A stretch of DNA of 44,605 bases from a virus (IMGVR_UViG_2547132255_000004), one strand, 5' to 3'. Numbered from the stretch's first letter, positions 1-44,605 are shown. Numbers and translations are program-made. The notes: generated by a model not told the origin, from the sequence alone.

Positions 1-1143
1 CTATGCTGTTTTGATATCTACGATAATCCAGTCTTTACCACGATCATCATTGTATCGGTCGGTCATTTTTCTGGATTTATGGCCTAACAACTTTTGCGTA
101 TCCAGACCCTGTTCCCGATATAACCGTTCTGACAGAGATCGCTGCTCATGAAATGTGGGCGCAGTTCCTTGCTCCCATTTTATGCCACATTTTTCCCTAG
201 CCTTTTTAAAAGCCGTTGTCAGAGTATTCGCAGAAACCTGGTCTCCTCTGTTTGCTTGAGAGGTTGTGTGACGGTAATGGACCAGATATTTACTAACAAC
301 AGCATCCCTGCACTGAGATATAACTTCACGAAGGGTAATATTCAGAGCATCGCATTTCAGGTTAAGCGGAATAGCAAGTTTTGAACCGGTTTTTTCCTGA
401 GTAATGTGCAACATGTCGTCCCAGATATCAGAGAATTTCAAATTGCAGATATCGCCTAAACGTTGTCCAGTGACAAGAGCAAGTAGCATCCCGCATTTTA
501 AATAGGGCTGCCGTCTGCTTACGCTGTCAAATATTGCCTGCCATTCGGGCAGTGATAATCTTTGGCGGTTTACTCGATTTCGCGGTTGTTTTGTTGCCTG
601 CGCTGGGTTAAATCCTGGCGGAACATGTCCTGCGTGTTGTGCTTCTTTGAAGACGTCGATTAACACCATTCTCACGACTTGCGCCATCCTGTTATGACCT
701 TCAGCCTTTACAGCATCAATTATTTCGGCAATATCAAGTGCGGTAATATCCTTGAGGTGTTGCATTCCACAATGCTCACGGAAAAGACGAATGGGTTTGC
801 CTTTTTGCCGATAGGAGTTGGGTCTTAGTTCATTATGTTGCAGCCTGTCCTCCTGGATAGAAATATATTTATCAAGCCATTCTGTCACCGTAATGTCTGA
901 GCGCCTGCCTTTCATTCTTTCCAGACGCTCATTGACGCTTAATATTTGTCGGGTACGTTGTTCAGCAATAATGGTATTTGCTTCAGTAGCAACTTGTTTT
1001 GCTTCATTCTCATCAGTTCCTAAGCTATGAAAACGACCGGATAGTGGATGTTTGTATTGCCAATATACCTTTCCGGTTCGCTTATCTAATTTGCAATATA
1101 AATTGGGTATAGAGATTTTGTGAGATCGGGGTCTAGCAGCCAT
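1..1143 (-). CDS. int: Tyrosine site-specific integrase (lambda Int-like), complete
   Basis: 380-aa ORF whose C-terminal region (...FHELRSLSERLY...LLGHKSRKMTDRYNDDRG...) resembles lambda Int from memory; overlapping excisionase-like ORF upstream on the same strand; stop codon at window bases 1-3. Confidence 0.9.
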   Translation of the reverse strand: MAARPRSHKISIPNLYCKLDKRTGKVYWQYKHPLSGRFHSLGTDENEAKQVATEANTIIAEQRTRQILSVNERLERMKGRRSDITVTEWLDKYISIQEDRLQHNELRPNSYRQKGKPIRLFREHCGMQHLKDITALDIAEIIDAVKAEGHNRMAQVVRMVLIDVFKEAQHAGHVPPGFNPAQATKQPRNRVNRQRLSLPEWQAIFDSVSRRQPYLKCGMLLALVTGQRLGDICNLKFSDIWDDMLHITQEKTGSKLAIPLNLKCDALNITLREVISQCRDAVVSKYLVHYRHTTSQANRGDQVSANTLTTAFKKAREKCGIKWEQGTAPTFHEQRSLSERLYREQGLDTQKLLGHKSRKMTDRYNDDRGKDWIIVDIKTA

Positions 1144-3920: not shown

Positions 3921-6661
<2,741 letters not shown>

Positions 6662-7566: not shown

Positions 7567-8658
7567 CTAGATGTGTTTTGATATTAAATGTTTGATAGCA
7601 AAAAGAATTAATTTTGTGACTTGCATCGCATAGCGATAACTGAAGCGGGGTTGTGGTGGTTTTTTGAACGGTGTGTGTGATGAGGGGAGGCAAAAGAAAA
7701 CCCGGCACGGTGGCCGGGTAGCATCACTATTCGATTTTTTAACCATGTAGTTACGTCGTGATGTTCCTAATCTTTCATTGTGAATCTCAGAAACGCTTAC
7801 TACGAGCGATATTCGTTCACCAACTTTATATTTACTTTGAATTTCTCCTAACATATCAATCGGATAAGAAGCCTTTATTTTTCCAAGCTCGCTTGCAATC
7901 TCCAATTTCCCGTACATGGATAAAATAGCAAGTTCGCCTGATATATGCTCATCCGGTAGCTGAATGACCTTCGTTAAAGCTAAGCGAGCATTCAGTTTTT
8001 TTATATCTTCTGAAGAAATCGACACTTGTCTGGTACCATCACTTAAAGGTCCAATCCAAGTAAGATCAAAGTTAAGACTATATTTTTCGCACTCATTTAT
8101 GATGTTTTTTAGGTTAGCTGTTGATTGCGAACCAATTTCGGCAATTTTAGCTGTGAATGTTTCTTCATCAATGGATGAGAGTAGTGCAAAAATCTCCTTA
8201 ACAGCATGACTGGATACTGTTTCGATGAGCTCGCAAGAACCAGTAGAAAAAGTAACACCTAACTTCGTCGAACCTGGACGCAAGTCTGCCAATCTCATGT
8301 CTAATGATTTTTTAACATCAATCGGCACACGACTAGAATCTTTCCCAGATCCAAATCGGTAAACTGCTTTCTGTACAAGGGATGCGAGATTACCTGAAAT
8401 TACAGATAGAATATCTAACGGAATAGACCCGAAATCGACCAAAACACCTTTTAATCTCAACTCCATGAAATCACGTAAAGGATGTTGGTTATCGATTGCA
8501 CGTTGTCTCTCTCGGAGATCGCTCAGATGGGAGTCAAGTGATCTAAATATAATGTCATCAGCAAATGATCTCCCCTTATTTTGAGCAAGCAGATCCACAT
8601 CGCGTTGAATGAACGCAATTCGCTCCTTGAGGGAGTTGAATGTTTTTTCTTCGCTCAT
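7567..8658 (-). CDS. Hypothetical 363-aa protein, second gene of the cI-downstream operon; C-terminal about 55 codons are probably read-through
   Basis: Start overlaps the stop of the upstream 157-aa gene (ATGA coupling); coiled-coil-like, charged sequence; the 3' end of the ORF runs through a terminator hairpin and the operator-like repeats with low-complexity translation. Confidence 0.6.
   Translation of the reverse strand: MSEEKTFNSLKERIAFIQRDVDLLAQNKGRSFADDIIFRSLDSHLSDLRERQRAIDNQHPLRDFMELRLKGVLVDFGSIPLDILSVISGNLASLVQKAVYRFGSGKDSSRVPIDVKKSLDMRLADLRPGSTKLGVTFSTGSCELIETVSSHAVKEIFALLSSIDEETFTAKIAEIGSQSTANLKNIINECEKYSLNFDLTWIGPLSDGTRQVSISSEDIKKLNARLALTKVIQLPDEHISGELAILSMYGKLEIASELGKIKASYPIDMLGEIQSKYKVGERISLVVSVSEIHNERLGTSRRNYMVKKSNSDATRPPCRVFFCLPSSHTPFKKPPQPRFSYRYAMQVTKLILFAIKHLISKHI
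7691..7718 (-). terminator. Rho-independent terminator (minus strand) at the end of the cI-downstream operon
   Basis: Stem CCCGGC/GCCGGG with 6-nt loop, followed on the minus strand by TTTTCTTTTG. Confidence 0.5.
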
Positions 8659-10264: not shown

Positions 10265-10810
10265 ATGACTATGCAACCACTTACATACCAACAGACTAGC
10301 GGATTTAGCCCGACTGCGGTGATAAATCGTTCTCAAACAAAACAGGCGCCAGGCCACGAAAAAATCCGTGATGCCGTTCGCGCCTGGTCGGCTGCAGATA
10401 ATCAGGATGTTGTTGCCGCACTCATTGTGAATGAGTATCGGGAGCAGGGCGGCGGCACCATCGATTTCCCTGATGATGTCAGCCGTGCACGCCAGAAGCT
10501 GTTCCGCTTCCTCGATAACAAATTCGATTCTGAAAAATACCGAAATAACGTGCGTGAACTGACCCCGGCAATTCTGGCGGTACTACCGCTGGAATATCGC
10601 GGCCACCTGGTTGAGCAGGATAGCTTCATGGCTCGGCTGGCTGAAATGGAAAAGGAACTCAGTGAGGCAAAACAGGCTGTCATTCTCAACGCACCACGCC
10701 ACCAGAAACTGAAGGAGATGAGTGAAGGCATTGTGTCGATGTTTCGTGTGGACCCGGATTTGGCTGGTCCACTGATGGCGATGGTCACCACCATGCTGGG
10801 GGCAATATGA
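10265..10810 (+). CDS. Hypothetical 181-aa protein in the cII position (possible CII-like regulator)
   Basis: Position immediately downstream of cro and upstream of O; no similarity to lambda CII seen by eye; family assignment not possible without a search. Confidence 0.4.
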   Translation: MTMQPLTYQQTSGFSPTAVINRSQTKQAPGHEKIRDAVRAWSAADNQDVVAALIVNEYREQGGGTIDFPDDVSRARQKLFRFLDNKFDSEKYRNNVRELTPAILAVLPLEYRGHLVEQDSFMARLAEMEKELSEAKQAVILNAPRHQKLKEMSEGIVSMFRVDPDLAGPLMAMVTTMLGAI

Positions 10811-10896
10811 CAGGTTCGGAAATGGCGAAAGCCGGTCTGCGCGAACAGAACCGACTTTCAGGTGCAAATCGTAACGCACTCATTGCGGGAGGAATT

Positions 10897-11825
10897 ATGG
10901 CAAACACTGCTGAGATATTCAATTTTCCAGTGCCGGATGTGGCACAAAAGGAGCCGCGCGTGGCAGATCTCGATGATGGTTATACGCGCATTGCTAATGA
11001 GTTGCTGGAAGCTGTGATGCTGGCCGGATTAACACAGCACCAGCTTCTGGTCTTCCTGGCTGTCATGCGCAAAACATATGGCTTTAATAAAAAATGGATT
11101 GGGTGAGCAACGAGCAACTTTCCGAGTTAACCGGGATATTGCCGCACAAGTGTTCTGCTGCAAAAAGTGTTCTGGTAAAGCGTGGGATTTTGATTCAGAG
11201 CGGGCGGAATATAGGCATTAATAATGTGGTCAGTGAATGGTCAACATTACCCGAATCAGGTAAGAAAAATAAAGTTTACCTGAAAGAGGTAAATTTACCT
11301 GAATCAGGTAAGAAAAGTTTACCCAAATCAGGTAAAGACGTTTACCCGAATCAGGTAAACACAAAAGACAAACTAACAAAAGACAATATAAAACCTTTTT
11401 CGTCCGAGAATTCTGTCGAATCCTCTGACCAGCCAGAAAACGATCTTCCTGTGGTGAAACCGGATGCTGCAATTCAGAGCGGCAGCAAGTGGGGGACAGC
11501 AGAAGACCTGACCGCCGCAGAGTGGATGTTTGACATGGTGAAGACCATCGCGCCATCAGCCAGAAAACCGAATTTTGCAGGGTGGGCTAACGATATCCGC
11601 CTGATGCGAGAACGTGACGGACGTAACCACCGCGACATGTGTGTACTGTTCCGCTGGGCATGCCAGGACAACTTCTGGTCCGGTAACGTGCTGAGTCCGG
11701 CCAAACTCCGCGACAAGTGGACCCAGCTCGAAATCAACCGAAACAAGCAACAGGCTGGCGTGACAGCCGGCAAACCAAAACTCGACCTGACGAACACTGA
11801 CTGGATTTACGGGGTGGAGCTATGA
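10897..11825 (+). pseudogene. O: Replication initiator O (lambda O-like), split by a frameshift at an A6 run near 11089-11094
   Basis: N-terminal part (MANTAEIFNF...VADLDDGYTRIANELLEA...LAVMRKTYGFNKK) matches the lambda O N-terminus in ORF 10807..11106; the rest (SNEQLSELTGILPHKC...) continues in ORF 11094..11825 in another frame; iterons lie inside. Confidence 0.75.
11247..11360 (+). repeat. Origin-of-replication iterons (four 18-19-bp direct repeats) inside O, followed by an AT-rich stretch
   Basis: TTACCCGAATCAGGTAAG / TTACCTGAATCAGGTAAG / TTACCCAAATCAGGTAAAG / TTACCCGAATCAGGTAAAC at about 11247, 11295, 11319, 11342; each has internal dyad TTACC...GGTAA; A-rich region 11360-11405; same layout as lambda ori. 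Confidence 0.75.
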
Positions 11826-16842: not shown

Positions 16843-17925
16843 TTAGAACTGATAAACCAGACCTACAGCGACGATGTCGTCGGTATCAATACCAGCTGTT
16901 TTGGTAAACTTACTATCGTCAATTAAGTTGATTTTGTAATCAACAAAAGTGGACATGTTTTTATTAAAGTAGTAAGTAGCACCGACATCGACATACTTGA
17001 CTAAGTCTCGGTCACCATGAACACCAAGGTCTTTACCTTTTGACTGAAGGTAAGCAACAGATGGTCGCAGACCGAAGTCAAACTGATATTGTGCTACTGC
17101 TTCAAAGTTTTGTGCTTTGTTTGCAATATGGTTATTACCAAAAACGGTCATATTCTGAGTTTCAGAATATGTGGTAGCCAGATAGATATTGTTCGCATCA
17201 TATTTCAGGCCTGCAGCCCATACTTCCGCATTTTTGCCGGAGGCATTGAATTTGCTCTTACCATAGGCGACCTGACCGTCAGTGCGATCTGATTTAGCAT
17301 AGGTTGCACCCACGCCGAATCCTTCATACTCATAAGTAGTGGAGAAACCGAAACCATCACCATTGGCTTCAGTTACGTCAGTGCGGTCATTTTTACCCTG
17401 ATACTGAGCAGCAAAGTTCAGGCCATCGACCAGACCAAAGAAGTCGTTGTTACGATAAGTTGCAACACCAGTAGTGCGACCAGTCATGAACACATCTGTT
17501 TGGGTCCAGGTATCACCACCGAATTCTGGCAGGACGTCAGTCCACGCACCGATGTCGTATGCTACACCGTAGTTACGGCCGTAATCGATTGAGCCGTAAT
17601 CACCAAATTTCAGGCCTGCAAATGCAAGACGGGTTTTGTCTTTGGAAGAACCTTGAGATTCAGCACGGTTGCCTTTGAATTCATATTCCCACTGACCGAA
17701 ACCAGTCAGTTGATCGTTGATTTGGGTTTCACCTTTGAAGCCAAGACGGGCATAAGTAGTATCACCATCATCTGCATCATTAGAGGAGAAGTAGTGCTTG
17801 GCATTAACTTTCCCGTATAGATCCAGCTTGTTACTGTCTTTATTATAAATTTCAGCTGCCTGAGCAGACATCGCCATCAGTACTGATGCAGCTACAGCAG
17901 AAATTGCCACTGTTAATTTTTTCAT
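16843..17925 (-). CDS. nmpC: Outer-membrane general porin, OmpC/OmpF family (NmpC/Lc-type prophage porin)
   Basis: 360-aa protein with signal peptide ([23 protein letters not shown]), porin motifs and C-terminal ...VAVGLVYQF; located between Q and the holin as nmpC is in DLP12. Confidence 0.92.
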
Positions 17926-19049: not shown

Positions 19050-19418
19050 CCTTTTGTTTCAGTTGGTTTTCCAATATCTTTCATTGGTAGCAGCATTTCC
19101 AGATTGCTTTTGATATATGGATTATTTACATGTTCATTTAATTGATGAATGATTCCATTTTTTCATTCTGGTCCAATACGGAAAATATTACTGTAATCAT
19201 ATATTTAAGAGCTTCAATTTCTTTTGCTGTTGATGCAGGAGATGAGCAGTCAGCTGTAATATTGATAAAAACTTCTTTTTGCATATCAAATCCTCAGATG
19301 GGGTAGCTCAGCCAGCATCCCCCATAATCCTTAACCAGAGCGCCAGTGTCCTACCACTGACGGGCTGAATGCTTAACATATCCAGGGTTCAGAAACCGAT
19401 AAATCCTGATAAATATCC

Positions 19419-37817: not shown

Positions 37818-40800
37818 ATGGGTAAAGGCAGCAGTAAGGGGCATACCCCGCGCGAAGCGAAGGACAACCTGAAATCATCCCAGATGCTGAGCGTGATAGA
37901 CGCCATCAGTGAAGGGCCGATTGAAGGTCCGGTGGACGGATTAAAAAGTGTGCTGCTGAACAGTACGCCAGTGCTGGACAGTGAGGGGAATACCAATATC
38001 TCCGGTGTCACGGTGGTTTTCCGGGCAGGTGAGCAGGAGCAGACACCGCCGGAGGGATTTGAATCCTCCGGCTCCGAGACGGTGCTGGGTACGGAAGTGA
38101 AGTACGACACGCCGATTACCCGGACCATCACGTCTGCAAACATCGACCGTCTGCGCTTTACCTTCGGTGTGCAGGCACTGGTGGAAACCACCTCAAAGGG
38201 GGACCGGAATCCGTCGGAAGTCCGCCTGCTGGTTCAGATACAGCGTAACGGTGGCTGGGTGACGGAAAAAGACATCACCATTAAAGGCAAAACCACCTCA
38301 CAGTATCTGGCCTCGGTGGTGGTGGGTAACCTGCCGCCGCGCCCGTTCAATATCCGGATGCGCAGGATGACGCCGGACAGCACCACAGACCAGCTGCAGA
38401 ACAAAACGCTCTGGTCGTCATACACCGAAATCATCGATGTGAAACAGTGCTACCCGAACACGGCACTGGTCGGCGTACAGGTGGATTCGGAGCAGTTCGG
38501 CAGCCAGCAGGTGAGCCGTAATTATCATCTGCGCGGGCGTATTCTGCAGGTGCCGTCGAACTATAACCCGCAGACGCGGCAATACAGCGGTATCTGGGAC
38601 GGAACGTTTAAGCCAGCATACAGCAATAACATGGCCTGGTGTCTGTGGGATATGCTGACCCATCCACGCTACGGCATGGGGAAACGTCTTGGTGCGGCGG
38701 ATGTGGACAAATGGGCGCTGTATGTCATCGGCCAGTACTGCGACCAGTCAGTGCCGGACGGCTTTGGCGGCACGGAGCCGCGCATCACCTGTAATGCGTA
38801 CCTGACCACACAGCGCAAGGCGTGGGATGTGCTCAGTGATTTCTGCTCGGCGATGCGCTGTATGCCGGTATGGAACGGGCAGACGCTGACGTTCGTGCAG
38901 GACCGACCGTCGGATAAGGTGTGGACCTATAACCGCAGTAATGTGGTGATGCCGGATGATGGCGCGCCGTTCCGCTACAGTTTCAGCGCCCTGAAAGACC
39001 GCCATAATGCCGTTGAGGTGAACTGGATTGACCCGAACAACGGCTGGGAGACGGCGACAGAGCTTGTGGAGGATACGCAGGCCATTGCCCGTTACGGTCG
39101 TAACGTCACGAAGATGGATGCTTTTGGCTGTACCAGCCGGGGGCAGGCACACCGCGCCGGGCTGTGGCTGATTAAAACAGAACTGCTGGAAACGCAGACC
39201 GTGGACTTCTGCGTGGGCGCAGAAGGGCTTCGCCATGTGCCGGGCGATGTCATTGAAATCTGTGATGATGACTATGCCGGTATCAGCATCGGCGGGCGCG
39301 TGCTGGCGGTAAACAGCCAGACCCGGACGCTGACGCTCGACCGTGAAATCACGCTGCCATCCTCCGGTACCACGCTGATAAGCCTGGTTGACGGAAGTGG
39401 CAATCCGATCAGCGTGGAGGTTCAGTCCGTCACCGACGGCGTGAAGGTGAAAGTGAGCCGTGTTCCTGACGGTGTTGCTGAATACAGCGTGTGGGGGCTG
39501 AAGCTGCCGACGCTGCGCCAGCGCCTGTTCCGCTGCGTGAGTATCCGTGAGAACGACGACGGCACGTATGCCATCACCGCCGTGCAGCATGTACCGGAAA
39601 AAGAGGCCATCGTGGATAACGGGGCGTACTTTGACGGCGACCAGAGCGGCACGGTGAATGGTGTCACGCCGCCAGCGGTGCAGCACCTGACCGCCGAAGT
39701 CACCGCAGACAGCGGGGAATATCAGGTGCTGGCGCGCTGGGACACGCCGAAGGTGGTGAAGGGCGTGAGCTTCCTGCTCCGTCTGACCGTAACAGCGGAT
39801 GACGGCAGTGAGCGGCTGGTCAGCACGGCCCGGACGACGGAAACCACATACCGCTTCAGGCAACTGGCGCTGGGGAACTACAGGCTGACAGTCCGGGCGG
39901 TAAATGCGTGGGGGCAGCAGGGCGATCCGGCGTCGGTATCGTTCCGGATTGCCGCACCGGCAGCACCGTCGAGGATTGAGCTGACGCCGGGCTATTTTCA
40001 GATAACCGCCACGCCGCATCTTGCCGTTTATGACCCGACGGTACAGTTTGAGTTCTGGTTCTCGGAAAAGCGGATTACCGATATCAGGCAGGTTGAAACC
40101 ACAGCCCGCTATCTTGGTACGGCGCTGTACTGGATAGCCGCCAGTATCAATATCAAACCGGGCCATGATTATTACTTTTATATCCGCAGTGTGAACACCG
40201 TTGGCAAATCGGCATTCGTGGAGGCCGTCGGTCGGGCGAGCGATGATGCGGAAGGTTACCTGGATTTTTTCAAAGGCAAGATAACCGAATCCCATCTCGG
40301 CAAGGAGCTGCTGGAAAAAGTCGAGCTGACGGAGGATAACGCCAGCAGACTGGAGGAGTTTTCGAAAGAGTGGAAGGACGCCAACGATAAGTGGAATGCC
40401 ATGTGGGGCGTCAAAATTGAGCAGACCAAAGACGGCAAACATTATGTCGCGGGTATTGGCCTCAGCATGGAGGACACGGAGGAAGGCAAACTGAGTCAGT
40501 TTCTGGTTGCCGCTAACCGTATCGCATTTATTGACCCGGCAAACGGGAATGAAACGCCGATGTTTGTGGCGCAGGGCAATCAGATATTCATGAACGACGT
40601 GTTCCTGAAGCGCCTGACGGCCCCCACCATTACCAGTGGTGGCAGTCCTCCGGTATTTTCCCTGACATCAGACGGAAAGCTGACCGCTAAAAATGCGGAT
40701 ATCAGTGGCAGTGTGAATGCGAACGCCGGGACGCTCAACAATGTCACGGTAAATGAAAACTGTACGATTAAGGGCATGCTGGAGGCGACTCAGGTCAGAG

Positions 40801-41231
40801 GTGACTTCGTTAAAGCTGTATCCAAATCATTTCCGAAACAGGCTGGTACGTGGGGTAACACGGAAACACCAAACGGGACGGTTACAGTCACCATCAGCGA
40901 TGATCATAACTTTGACCGTCAAATCATTATTCCGCCCATTATCTTTAACGGAATAGCGTATAGCGATCCGGGAAGTGGTAATAACCCGGGAGGTACAAGA
41001 TACACGGGTTATGGTTTTGAAGTTCGCAAAAACGGTGTATTAATCGCATCCAGAGAAACTAAAGGGGCCATTCCCGGTAGCTACAGTGCGGTTATTGATA
41101 TGCCGAGTGGCAGGGGAAGCGTCACTCTGGAGTTTAAGGTTTTCCATAAAGGCAATCAGTGGGCAGGTAATATCACCGACTGTACGGTGATTGTGACCAA
41201 AAAAGCCGCTTCCGGCATCAGTATTCGTTGA
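37818..41231 (+). CDS. J: Central tail fibre / host-specificity protein J; C-terminal receptor-binding region differs from lambda
   Basis: 1137-aa protein; N-terminal roughly 1000 residues are lambda J-like, but the last roughly 130-150 residues (...[54 protein letters not shown]...[14 protein letters not shown]) do not match the lambda LamB-binding C-terminus as I recall it. Confidence 0.9.
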
Positions 41232-41300: not shown

Positions 41301-41900
41301 ATGCGTAAACTTTATGCCGCCATTTTGTCCGCAGCCATTTGTCTGGCCGTATCCGGTGCGCCTGCATGGGCATCTGAACATCAGTCCACGCTGAGCGCGG
41401 GGTATCTTCATGCCTCGACGAACGTTCCCGGCAGCGATGATCTTAACGGGATTAACGTGAAATACCGTTATGAGTTTACGGACACACTGGGGCTGGTGAC
41501 GTCATTCAGCTATGCAGGAGACAAGAATCGCCAGCTTACCCGTTACAGCGATACCCGCTGGCATGAAGATTCCGTGCGTAACCGCTGGTTCAGCGTGATG
41601 GTGGGGCCGTCTGTGCGCGTGAATGAATGGTTCAGCGCGTATGCGATGGCGGGTATGGCTTACAGCCGTGTGTCGACTTTCTCCGGGGATTATCTCCGCG
41701 TAACTGACAACAAGGGGAAAACGCACGACGTGCTGACCGGAAGTGATGACGGTCGCCACAGCAACACGTCTCTGGCGTGGGGAGCTGGCGTGCAGTTTAA
41801 CCCGACCGAATCCGTGGCCATTGATATTGCTTATGAAGGCTCCGGCAGTGGCGACTGGCGCACTGACGGTTTCATCGTGGGTGTCGGTTATAAGTTCTGA
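41301..41900 (+). CDS. lom: Lom-like outer membrane protein (Ail/Lom/PagC family)
   Basis: 199-aa protein with signal peptide and C-terminal ...[15 protein letters not shown] beta-barrel end typical of the family; lambda lom position after J. Confidence 0.85.
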
Positions 41901-41926: not shown

Positions 41927-41953
41927 AGCCCGCCGGTTCAGGCGGGCTTTTTT
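41927..41953 (+). terminator. Rho-independent terminator downstream of lom
   Basis: AGCCCGCC-ggttca-GGCGGGCT followed by TTTTT. Confidence 0.6.
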
Positions 41954-41958
41954 GTGGG

Positions 41959-44024
41959 GTGAATATGGCAGTAAAGATTTCAGGTGTACTGAAAGACGGC
42001 ACAGGAAAACCGGTACAGAACTGCACAATCCAGCTGAAAGCAAAACGTAACAGCACCACAGTTGTGGTGAACACGGTGGCCTCAGAAAATCCGGATGAAG
42101 CCGGACGTTACAGCATGGATGTTGAGTATGGCCAGTACAGCGTCGCCCTGCTGGTTGAAGGTTTTCCGCCTTCACATGCCGGGACCATCACCGTGTATGA
42201 GGATTCTAAGCCGGGGACATTGAATGATTTTCTGGGCGCTGCAACAGAAGATGATGTTTGTCCGGAGGCACTGTATCGTTTTGAAAAGATGGTGGAAGAG
42301 GCGGCACGCAACGCTGAAGCCGCCTCTCAGAGCGCAGCGGCAGCAAAGAAATCAGAAACAGCAGCGGCATCGTCCAGGAACGCGGCGAAAACATCAGAGA
42401 CGAATGCAGGTAACAGCGCGAAAGCGGCAGCTTCTTCAAAAACAGCCGCACAAAACGCAGCAACAGCGGCAGAACGTTCAGAGACAAATGCCCGTGCGTC
42501 AGAAGAAGCCTCCGCAGACAGTGAAGAGGCTTCCCGCCGTAATGCAGAGTCAGCCGCTGAAAATGCCGGAGTCGCCACCACAAAAGCGCGGGAGGCCGCA
42601 GCAGACGCAACAAAGGCCGGGCAGAAAAAGGATGAGGCTCTGTCGGCAGCGACACGAGCTGAAAAGGCGGCAGACCGCGCAGAAGCCGCAGCGGAAGTGA
42701 CTGCAGAGCCCTGTGCGAATATAGTGCCGCCGCTGCCTGATGTGTGGATACCGTTTAACGATTCACTGGATATGATTGCGGGTTTTTCTCCGGGCTATAA
42801 AAAAATAGCTATTGGTGACGATGTGGTTCAGGTCGCCAGTGATAAACAGGTTAATTTCAGTCGCGCATCAACGGCAACATATATCAACAAATCTGGCGAA
42901 CTGAAAACGGCGGAAATTAATGAGCCGCGATTTGAGTGTGATGGCCTGCTTATTGAGGGACAAAGAACGAACTACATGCTCAATTCGGAAAGTCCAGCCA
43001 GCTGGGGGAAGTCATCAAACATGGATGTGCCCGAAACCGGGACGGATAGTTTTGGTTTTACTTATGGAAAGTTTGTCTGCAACGATTCTCTGGTTGGGCA
43101 AACTTCGGCTATTAATATGGCATCAATTGCTGCAACAAAGTCAGTTGATGTCTCAGGCGATAACAAGTACGTGACAACCTCATGCCGTTTTAAAACAGAA
43201 CGACAGGTAAGGTTACGTATACGGTTTGATAAGTATGATGGTAGTGCAACAACTTTTCTTGGCGATGCGTACATTGATACGCAAACGCTTGAAATTAGTA
43301 TGACAGGTGGTGCTGCCGGCAGAATTACGGCACGAGTCAGGAAGGATAAGACCACGGGCTGGATTTTTGCAGAGGCAACGATTCAGGCAATTGATGGTGA
43401 GTTAAAAATAGGCTCTCAGATACAGTATTCTCCTGGGCAGGGTGGGGCAACAGTATCTGGTGACTATATTTATCTTGCCACCCCACAAGTAGAGAATGGG
43501 CCGTGTGTATCATCATTTATTATTTCAGGAGGCAGCGCAACGACAAGAGCCAGTGATTTGGTTAGTATCCCCACCAGAAATAATCTTTATAAGTTACCAT
43601 TTACTTTTTACTTGAGATTCATAAAAACTGGGATATTGCACCAAACGCCGCACCCCGCGTGTGGGATATAGCAGCAGCCAATACCGGGCAATCAGCAATT
43701 GCAGCAATCAACAGAGGTAGTGGTAAGTTATATATGAGTCTGTCAAACCCTTCAGGCTCGTATGTTAATAGCGCAGCGACAGATGTATTTGCAGAGAAAA
43801 CCACATTTGGATGTATTGCAAAAGCTGATGGTCACTTTCATGTGGTGACAAATGGTAAAGCGGTTAATGAAGTTTATTGTGAATATAATGGCGTGACCGC
43901 TGATAAAAATATCCGATTTGGAGGGCAGACGAATACTGGAGAACGACATCTGTTTGGCCATATTCGCAATTTCCGCATATGGCATAAAGAATTAAATGAC
44001 AGGCAATTAAAAGAGGTCGTATGA
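41959..44024 (+). pseudogene. stf: Side tail fibre gene stf, split into 570-aa and 121-aa ORFs by a frameshift at an A5 run (about 43623-43627)
   Basis: N-terminus MAVKISGVLKDGTGKPVQNCTIQLKAKRNSTTVVVNTV... plus Ala/Ser-rich repeat region matches the lambda Stf N-terminal part; protein-like translation continues in the +1 frame (NWDIAPNAAPRVWDIAAANTG...NFRIWHKELNDRQLKEVV) right after the A-run. Confidence 0.65.
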
Positions 44025-44299
44025 AAGATTTAACTTTGAAGTTTCATGACAAACTGCAGTTTAAGGCCTTCCTGTCATCTCTTGGCTGGGCGGAAGATGA
44101 AGACCTCCAGAATAAACTGTTAGTTGATGAAATTGGTTTCACCTACACAGAAACAGGGGTAACAGAAGAGGGAGAACCTGTCTGTATCCGGAATGATGGT
44201 TATTTTGTCAACATTCGCATTCTTGATGACTTGTTTGATGTTTCTGTATTCTCTGATTATGTCGTGGAGCTGGAAACACCGCTTCGGGAATGGAGCTGA
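44021..44299 (+). CDS. Hypothetical 92-aa acidic protein downstream of stf
   Basis: ORF overlapping the stf end; in the position where lambda has tfa but not Tfa-like by eye. Confidence 0.4.
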   Translation: MKDLTLKFHDKLQFKAFLSSLGWAEDEDLQNKLLVDEIGFTYTETGVTEEGEPVCIRNDGYFVNIRILDDLFDVSVFSDYVVELETPLREWS

Positions 44300-44311
44300 A
44301 AGGAGGAAATA

Positions 44312-44605
44312 ATGGATATAAGCCCCTTACTTCATGCACTTTGTGCTGTGGCTGCGCAGATACTGGTTGGTCTTTTTACCGGAAACTGGGCTTACGGAGC
44401 GATAGCCGGTTGTACGTTCTTCATTGCGCGTGAACATACCCAGGCAGAATATCGCTGGATTGAAATGTTCGGGCATGGCAAGCGAATGAATATGCCGTGG
44501 TGGGGCGGTTTTGATCCGCGAGCTTGGGATGTGGCAAGCCTGATGGATTTTGCTGTGCCGGTGGTGGCGTGTCTGCTGGTCTGGCTGTTGGTTAATCGTG
44601 GGTGA
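44312..44605 (+). CDS. Hypothetical small membrane protein (97 aa, two predicted TM segments)
   Basis: Hydrophobic N-terminal (LLHALCAVAAQILVGLF) and C-terminal (LMDFAVPVVACLLVWLLV) segments; RBS AGGAGG upstream; stop at the window end. Confidence 0.45.
   Translation: MDISPLLHALCAVAAQILVGLFTGNWAYGAIAGCTFFIAREHTQAEYRWIEMFGHGKRMNMPWWGGFDPRAWDVASLMDFAVPVVACLLVWLLVNRG

Follow-up and report, generated by a model that had tools for sequence, protein, structure and literature searches.

A side tail fibre gene of a Perceval/phage 21-like lambdoid prophage, probably split by a homopolymer under-call

The window analyzed here, a 44,605-nucleotide stretch of viral DNA (IMGVR_UViG_2547132255_000004), is a lambdoid prophage that extends from an integrase gene (1-1143, minus strand) through to the end of a gene for a 97-aa protein. 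The exact stop codon of this last gene is also the end of the window, as is the case in many IMG/VR provirus calls. The order J (37818-41231), lom (41301-41900) and then a tail fibre gene (from 41959) is the same in Perceval, phage 21 and lambda, and the position of the fibre gene directly after J and lom is that of a lambda-type side tail fibre. As written in the window, the fibre gene is interrupted, and the locus contains the following features:

41927 to 41954, plus strand: terminator-like GC-rich hairpin followed by a T-run (agcccgcc-ggttc-aggcgggc-tttttt), after lom and just upstream of the fibre gene
41959 to 44024, plus strand: full extent of the side tail fibre gene, of Perceval/phage 21 type, interrupted as written; its T6 version encodes 688 aa
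41959 to 43671, plus strand: 5' ORF of 570 aa, frame 1; native up to residue 550, then 20 out-of-frame residues (YLRFIKTGILHQTPHPACGI)
42724 to 44594, plus strand: candidate mobile cassette comprising the 92-aa and 97-aa genes together with the C-terminal module of the fibre (residues about 256-688); a P2-like prophage has it at 88% DNA identity
43605 to 43609, plus strand: T5 run, the actual frameshift site; T6 in all intact relatives
43623 to 43627, plus strand: A5 run, the site proposed by the earlier note and not the lesion; A5 in all relatives too
43659 to 44024, plus strand: 3' ORF of 121 aa, frame 0; end of the predicted distal ConA/LamG-like domain, ending ...NFRIWHKELNDRQLKEVV
44021 to 44299, plus strand: gene for a 92-aa acidic protein, overlapping the fibre stop codon (ATGA); phrog_1361, of unknown function; not Tfa
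44312 to 44605, plus strand: gene for a 97-aa protein, putatively a membrane protein with 2 TM segments according to the phage 21 annotation; phrog_1443

The two ORFs overlap by 13 nt, the native frame of the 121-aa ORF being open already from about 43590, and the fibre product as written loses 138 native residues. The true start of the fibre is likely the ATG at 41965, with GTGGGG before it; a start at this ATG yields 686 aa, which is the phage 21 annotation and also the call in most database copies. Phage 21 has an annotated terminator at the place homologous to the hairpin (L002 2968-2995). An earlier note on this DNA had described a 570-aa ORF with a lambda Stf-like N-terminus and an Ala/Ser-rich shaft, as well as a protein-like tip in a second frame. 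Both descriptions are borne out: the coordinates of the 570-aa ORF are confirmed, lambda orf-401 is 75% identical to it over 158 aa, and the C-terminal sequence quoted for the tip is correctly that of the 121-aa ORF.

Comparison with known phages pinpointed the interruption to a single base. The fibre DNA of Perceval (PERCE_22, CAH1234820) is identical to that of the window apart from one T. In a three-way alignment, Perceval and the window are identical (2342/2342) but for a single column, where the window lacks one T of a T6 run, while phage 21 (CPT_21_22, UMO75437) has T6 and differs from the window by 35 substitutions. Both phages annotate the region as one gene ('tail fiber protein' and 'side tail fiber'). 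Unlike the window, both of them and the copies in E. coli LF82, NC101, NGF-1 and Nissle 1917 have T6 and encode an intact fibre of 686/688 aa. A megablast search retrieved 14 phage records that cover at least 80% of the query, none of which (0/14) has T5, and the eight best listed whole-query records, from seven phages, span 2343 bases as against 2342 in the window.

The earlier note had placed the frameshift at the A5 run and proposed that one extra A would fuse the ORFs into a fibre of roughly 690 aa. The run is indeed present, 14 nt downstream of the T5 run, and an A inserted there does give a 688-aa ORF, as the note expected; any +1 insertion between 43590 and 43670, however, joins the two frames, and restoring one T also gives 688 aa, as in Perceval and phage 21. 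The intact relatives all have A5 as well, and the only indel that separates the window from Perceval and phage 21 is in the T-run at 43605-43609, so that these alignments rule out the A5 run as the lesion and leave practically no chance that an extra A restores the native gene. Since the lesion is in the T-run and not in the A-run, the naive repair by adding an A creates a protein with four wrong residues. These residues (Y551, R553, F554 and I555) are found at their positions in no homologue, as opposed to the motif L-x-E-(I/V)-H conserved in close homologues. On the evidence of sequence comparison, the two ORFs are thus halves of one side tail fibre gene, with a single-base frameshift between them. 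That they are normally separate, or that programmed ribosomal frameshifting or transcriptional slippage at one of the two runs joins them, might be suggested by their 13-nt overlap and by the T5 run, which judging from its sequence could permit occasional -1 slippage of tRNA-Phe. Yet the zero frame has no X XXY YYZ heptamer, the two-ORF arrangement and the slippery site are not conserved among homologues, the break interrupts a beta strand that is conserved in the predicted distal domain, and the ORF is single and continuous in Perceval, phage 21, NC101, 47 of 50 IMG/VR loci and all 57 aligned homologues. Because all homologues are fused, we reject the separate-gene and programmed-frameshift readings as next to impossible.

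A split is not the usual form of this gene. All 57 homologues that we aligned, down to 25% identity, run without interruption across the junction, which sits in a conserved motif (P-F-T-x-L-x-E-V-x-x-N-W...P-N-x-A-P-R), and the proposal of the earlier note that a single gene had been split is thereby upheld. At the 50 IMG/VR loci with this C-terminus, 47 have a frame open over 596 codons or more, and a shortened upstream frame or another lesion is found in the remaining 3; the 92-aa gene overlaps the stop codon of the fibre ORF in 50/50. The intact 686-aa protein occurs on at least 1000 contigs in a collection of 15 billion proteins, in which the exact 570/568-aa product is absent. Among 1.84 billion cluster representatives we found 2513 related clusters, many of which align, at 25-70% identity, with the complete 440-aa C-terminal module as one uninterrupted match.

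The domain content of the intact fibre combines a lambda-type base with a lectin-like tip. The prophage tail fibre N-terminal domain PF08400 covers residues 3-133 (E 6.3e-68, 227 bits against a cutoff of 26.6) and, by analogy with lambda Stf, would anchor the fibre to the tail tip. The Ala/Ser-rich, presumably coiled-coil segment that follows resembles the lambda shaft and is predicted as one long helix (residues 101-236) in a low-confidence full-length model (22 close homologues, pLDDT 49.8). Residues 331-531 match the 'head spike fiber' family NF048003 (56.8 bits against a cutoff of 36, E 4e-15, model positions 1-181 of 182), and residues 562-683 score just below the cutoff of 27.6 for PF13385 (Laminin_G_3), with 24.6 bits for the whole protein and 26.7 bits (E 7e-6) for the 121-aa ORF. 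For the C-terminal 440 aa, an AlphaFold model based on 58 diverse homologues reached a pLDDT of 92.7 and a pTM of 0.88; it is nearly all beta strand after a short N-terminal helix, and shows the beta-sandwich jelly-roll fold of the ConA-like lectin superfamily. By this prediction, the C-terminal module of about 430 aa is two ConA/LamG-like lectin domains, in agreement with the jelly-roll-like tip that had been supposed from the sequence. A Foldseek search against the PDB ranks baseplate/fibre chains of E217 and Pa193 first. In the model, the frameshift falls in predicted strand 312-320, close to where the Laminin_G_3-matching region starts, and therefore the truncated product, if real, would lack nearly all of that domain.

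We then asked how widely the T5 allele is distributed. The fibre gene occurs in 576 of 5426 complete E. coli genomes (about 11%), among them LF82, NC101, NGF-1 and Nissle 1917, and the T5 allele in 0/576 of these: no genome reaches 99% identity to an 81-nt probe, so that all 576 differ from the window. It was equally absent from 34 IMG/VR contigs (0/34) and 40 metagenome contigs (0/40). Seventy of these 74 contigs have T6, and the other four have an in-frame T5C, all of them metagenomic (36/40 T6, 4/40 T5C); in these four (L041, L044, L055 and L069), TTTTTC replaces TTTTTT, an in-frame Leu-to-Ser change that leaves the homopolymer one T shorter. Species-representative genomes contain neither the T5 nor the T6 allele. 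Read-derived Logan contigs supplied the only T5 copies that we found, three in number, and in two of them there are additional one-base deletions: L079 has four homopolymer contractions in 3.9 kb, and L080 a second one-base deletion inside the fibre gene. The third, L086, has T5 and no other indel in 2 kb. In other Logan contigs with a separately called 121-aa ORF, the contraction is in a neighbouring T3, T4 or C4 run.

Two further observations concern how copies of this gene appear in databases. A fragment that represents a large cluster (P0163) carries a one-base deletion (GAT AAA AAT to GAA AAA ATA, at window position about 43900-43910) near the 3' end of the fibre gene, which alters the last 35 residues. 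In RefSeq, PGAP labels intact fibre copies as one or two 'incomplete' pseudogenes (NC101, L087 41613-43317; STIN_95, L090 1632-3692). The NC101 fibre ORF is open for 686 codons when translated, and these labels look like an annotation quirk that comes from domain-level evidence models.

Strains NC101 and STIN_95 carry the same prophage, integrated next to icd, and we aligned the whole window to the NC101 copy, using STIN_95 as a second reference. Six substitutions and five one-base indels separate the window from the NC101 prophage. In each of the five indels it is the window that lacks the base, always within an A/T run of at least six, and no run is expanded; relative to NC101, 4 of the 11 A/T7 runs, 1 of the 32 A/T6 runs and none of the 120 A/T5 runs are contracted, and the single A/T8 run kept its length. 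At all five sites STIN_95 agrees with NC101 in having the longer run, as does Perceval at both of the sites that it shares. The five deletions are:

7735 to 7740 (aligned 7734), no strand assigned: T7 in NC101 and STIN_95, T6 in the window; last codons of a minus-strand hypothetical gene shifted, from 310 to 363 aa
11089 to 11094 (aligned 11088), no strand assigned: A7 in NC101 and STIN_95, A6 in the window; replication gene O cut after about 99 of 339 codons
13094 to 13099 (aligned 13093), no strand assigned: A7 in relatives, A6 in the window; intergenic, between the ribosome-binding site and the start of a DUF4145 gene
19158 to 19163 (aligned 19157), no strand assigned: T7 in NC101, STIN_95 and Perceval, T6 in the window; minus-strand gene for a 79-aa hypothetical protein frameshifted
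43605 to 43609 (aligned 43604), plus strand: T6 in NC101, STIN_95, Perceval and phage 21, T5 in the window; fibre gene split

These contractions break four reading frames, among them that of gene O, which starts at 10807 (span 10807-11825) and whose A6 allele was found in none of 2404 E. coli genomes. Over the 22.6 kb of its late half, the window matches the prophage of NC101, NGF-1 and others base for base, the fibre gap excepted. Private to the window, relative to both NC101 and STIN_95, are the five deletions, one substitution (13351), and the insertion of an IS100-type element of the IS21 family in bet:

4399 to 6351: IS100-type element, flanked by a 6-bp ATGATT duplication
4464 to 5246, minus strand: istB, within the element
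5243 to 6265, minus strand: istA, within the element

Both NC101 and STIN_95 lack the IS100 in bet, and among complete RefSeq E. coli genomes none carries this prophage with the IS. In strain SCEC020001 (L093), a different, defective prophage at bio/ybhC has another IS100 within 1-2 bp of the same bet position, and that copy differs from the window's by 17 substitutions within the IS; this position may be a hot spot for IS100 insertion. The accessory genes seen in the NC101 copy of the prophage are those for an OmpC/NmpC-like porin and an iss/bor lipoprotein, a TonB fragment and, just past the point where the window ends, sitABCD (window 16843-17925, minus strand, and the window end; L087 44346-47795).

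Whether the split reflects real decay or a homopolymer error had been left open by the earlier note, and the private allele and the five A/T-run deletions now favour error. We consider it quite probable, from the pattern of changes, that the split is a homopolymer under-call made in sequencing or assembly: the T6 run would have been written as T5 at 43605-43609, causing the gene to read as two ORFs, and the cause would be technical and not a mutation in the organism. We favour an artefact because T5 is private (0/576 genomes) and is one of five A/T-run deletions, every other one-base gap in the window being the same kind of shortened A/T run. The alternative is a real slipped-strand mutation in a decaying prophage, with a genuine fibre pseudogene as in lambda PaPa, whose stf frameshift is an established real mutation. 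The stf gene of the lambda reference genome is written as two ORFs, orf-401 and orf-314, which Hendrix and Duda (1992) reportedly ascribed to a frameshift. A genuine pseudogene, although unlikely, keeps a share of the probability because homopolymer runs are also natural slippage hot spots and because the IS100 in bet is a real lesion, so that some of the decay is genuine; lesions also occur in 3/50 IMG/VR copies, a different one-base deletion is found in fragment P0163, Logan contig L086 has T5 with no other indel in 2 kb, and the single A/T8 run was left unchanged. Indel rates climb steeply with run length (PMC8510543). Mismatch-repair-defective E. coli strains, however, accumulate 30,061 substitutions as compared to 5,324 small indels (PMC8510543), and at this ratio we calculate a binomial probability of about 4e-4 for 5 indels among 6 private small changes. 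The excess of the window, in which four more private A/T-run contractions accompany the fibre gap with no expansions and a single private substitution, is therefore improbable even for a mismatch-repair mutant. All five private one-base changes are in the same direction, and the late region is otherwise base-for-base identical to NC101, with one gap in 22.6 kb. T5 was found in none of the 74 contigs, and independent high-quality sequences do not reproduce it; we consider it very improbable that the T-run acts as a genuine on/off phase switch of the fibre.

A homopolymer under-call thus being the preferred reading, the window as written leads to false 'pseudogene' calls for the side tail fibre and for gene O, and what is probably an intact Perceval-like prophage would then be scored as defective. 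If the pseudogene were real instead, particles would be without functional side fibres and would rely on the J tip alone.

The earlier note had also stated that the distal domain and the two downstream genes are not the lambda stf-tfa pair. From about residue 256 onward the fibre has no similarity to lambda orf-314 (BLASTP, best E 5.6); the 92-aa protein has no BLASTP similarity to lambda Tfa and no Caudo_TAP match in Pfam, and the 97-aa protein is likewise not Tfa-like. With no likeness to orf-314 or Tfa, that statement holds. Neither small protein belongs to a family of known function in Pfam, NCBIfam, PADLOC or PHROGs.

The tip and the two small genes appear together in another setting. A P2-like prophage (L091 4487-6358) is 88% identical in DNA to window 42724-44594: there, the same C-terminal module continues from a gpH-type N-terminus, with the junction at PPLPDVW, and behind it come both small genes and then a 74-aa remnant of a Caudo_TAP tail fibre assembly gene. 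Other N-termini found on the same module are PF03406, PF12571 and a third type. The linkage of these genes is directly visible, and one might speculate, with the functions as guesses, that the tip and the 92-aa and 97-aa genes form an uncharacterized host-range cassette that moves between lambda-like siphovirus and P2-like myovirus prophages, the 92-aa protein replacing a Tfa/Caudo_TAP-type chaperone and the 97-aa membrane protein having a linked role in exclusion or receptor masking; we hold this reading as a whole to be rather doubtful. The lectin-type tip and the two small genes linked to it, which B2-type gut E. coli commonly carry and which sipho- and myoviruses exchange, hold modest interest for phage host-range engineering, in which swapping of Stf C-termini is already practised (10.1101/2022.09.30.509847).

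Overall, the region holds one ordinary side tail fibre gene, that of a Perceval/phage 21-like lambdoid prophage, already known and annotated elsewhere; as the gene is known and its one-base defect probably technical, the finding is an ordinary one. In the Perceval/phage 21-type prophages, the gene has the same neighbours as in the window, namely J, lom, the fibre, the 92-aa gene and the 97-aa gene, followed by sitDCBA. Perceval is an active, plaque-forming phage that also carries sitABCD (PMC9928086). The fibre is discussed neither in the phage 21 paper nor in the Perceval paper.

The predicted lectin domains have counterparts in several known systems. The head spike fibre of the Rhodobacter gene transfer agent RcGTA, Rcc01080 (NF048003; PDB 6TB9 chain F3), is homologous to fibre residues about 300-545 (E 2.9e-10), the region of the proximal lectin domain, and binds Rhodobacter capsular polysaccharide (PMC10218006, PMC7296036). 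Unlike the side tail fibre, the RcGTA protein sits on capsid pentons, through a short N-terminal peptide, and not on the tail, with only residues 2-10 resolved experimentally, and it lacks a lambda-type N-terminus and a coiled coil. ConA/LamG-like lectin domains are also found in AbnA domain 4, botulinum toxin Hc-N, CBM40, pentraxins and the fibre-associated proteins of Pseudomonas phages Pa193 and E217, at only 9-16% sequence identity; the fold by itself does not give the ligand. The tail fibres of coliphages rolling, EdH4 and NBEco002 (BFVD models) contain the whole two-domain module (TM 0.87-0.91, 36-49% identity); their N-terminal attachment, like that of the P2-like gpH variant, differs from that of the window's fibre, being gpH-type (PF12571, PF03406) or other.

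Lambda Stf occupies the same position after J and lom, is 75% identical over the N-terminal 158 aa and has a similar Ala/Ser-rich shaft, but its distal orf-314 is unrelated to the distal 430 aa of the window's fibre, and the window has no Tfa homologue. The Stf of Ur-lambda promotes reversible adsorption and uses OmpC (10.1101/2022.09.30.509847). In parallel, the intact fibre described here likely mediates a reversible first contact, by binding a surface polysaccharide, a ligand that we infer by analogy; and because its domains are lectin-like and related to the capsule-binding gene transfer agent fibre, a secondary receptor other than lambda's is plausible, as the earlier note had suggested. 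The stf gene of the lambda reference is likewise written as two ORFs, yet the frameshift in lambda is a real mutation, whereas that in the window is probably technical.
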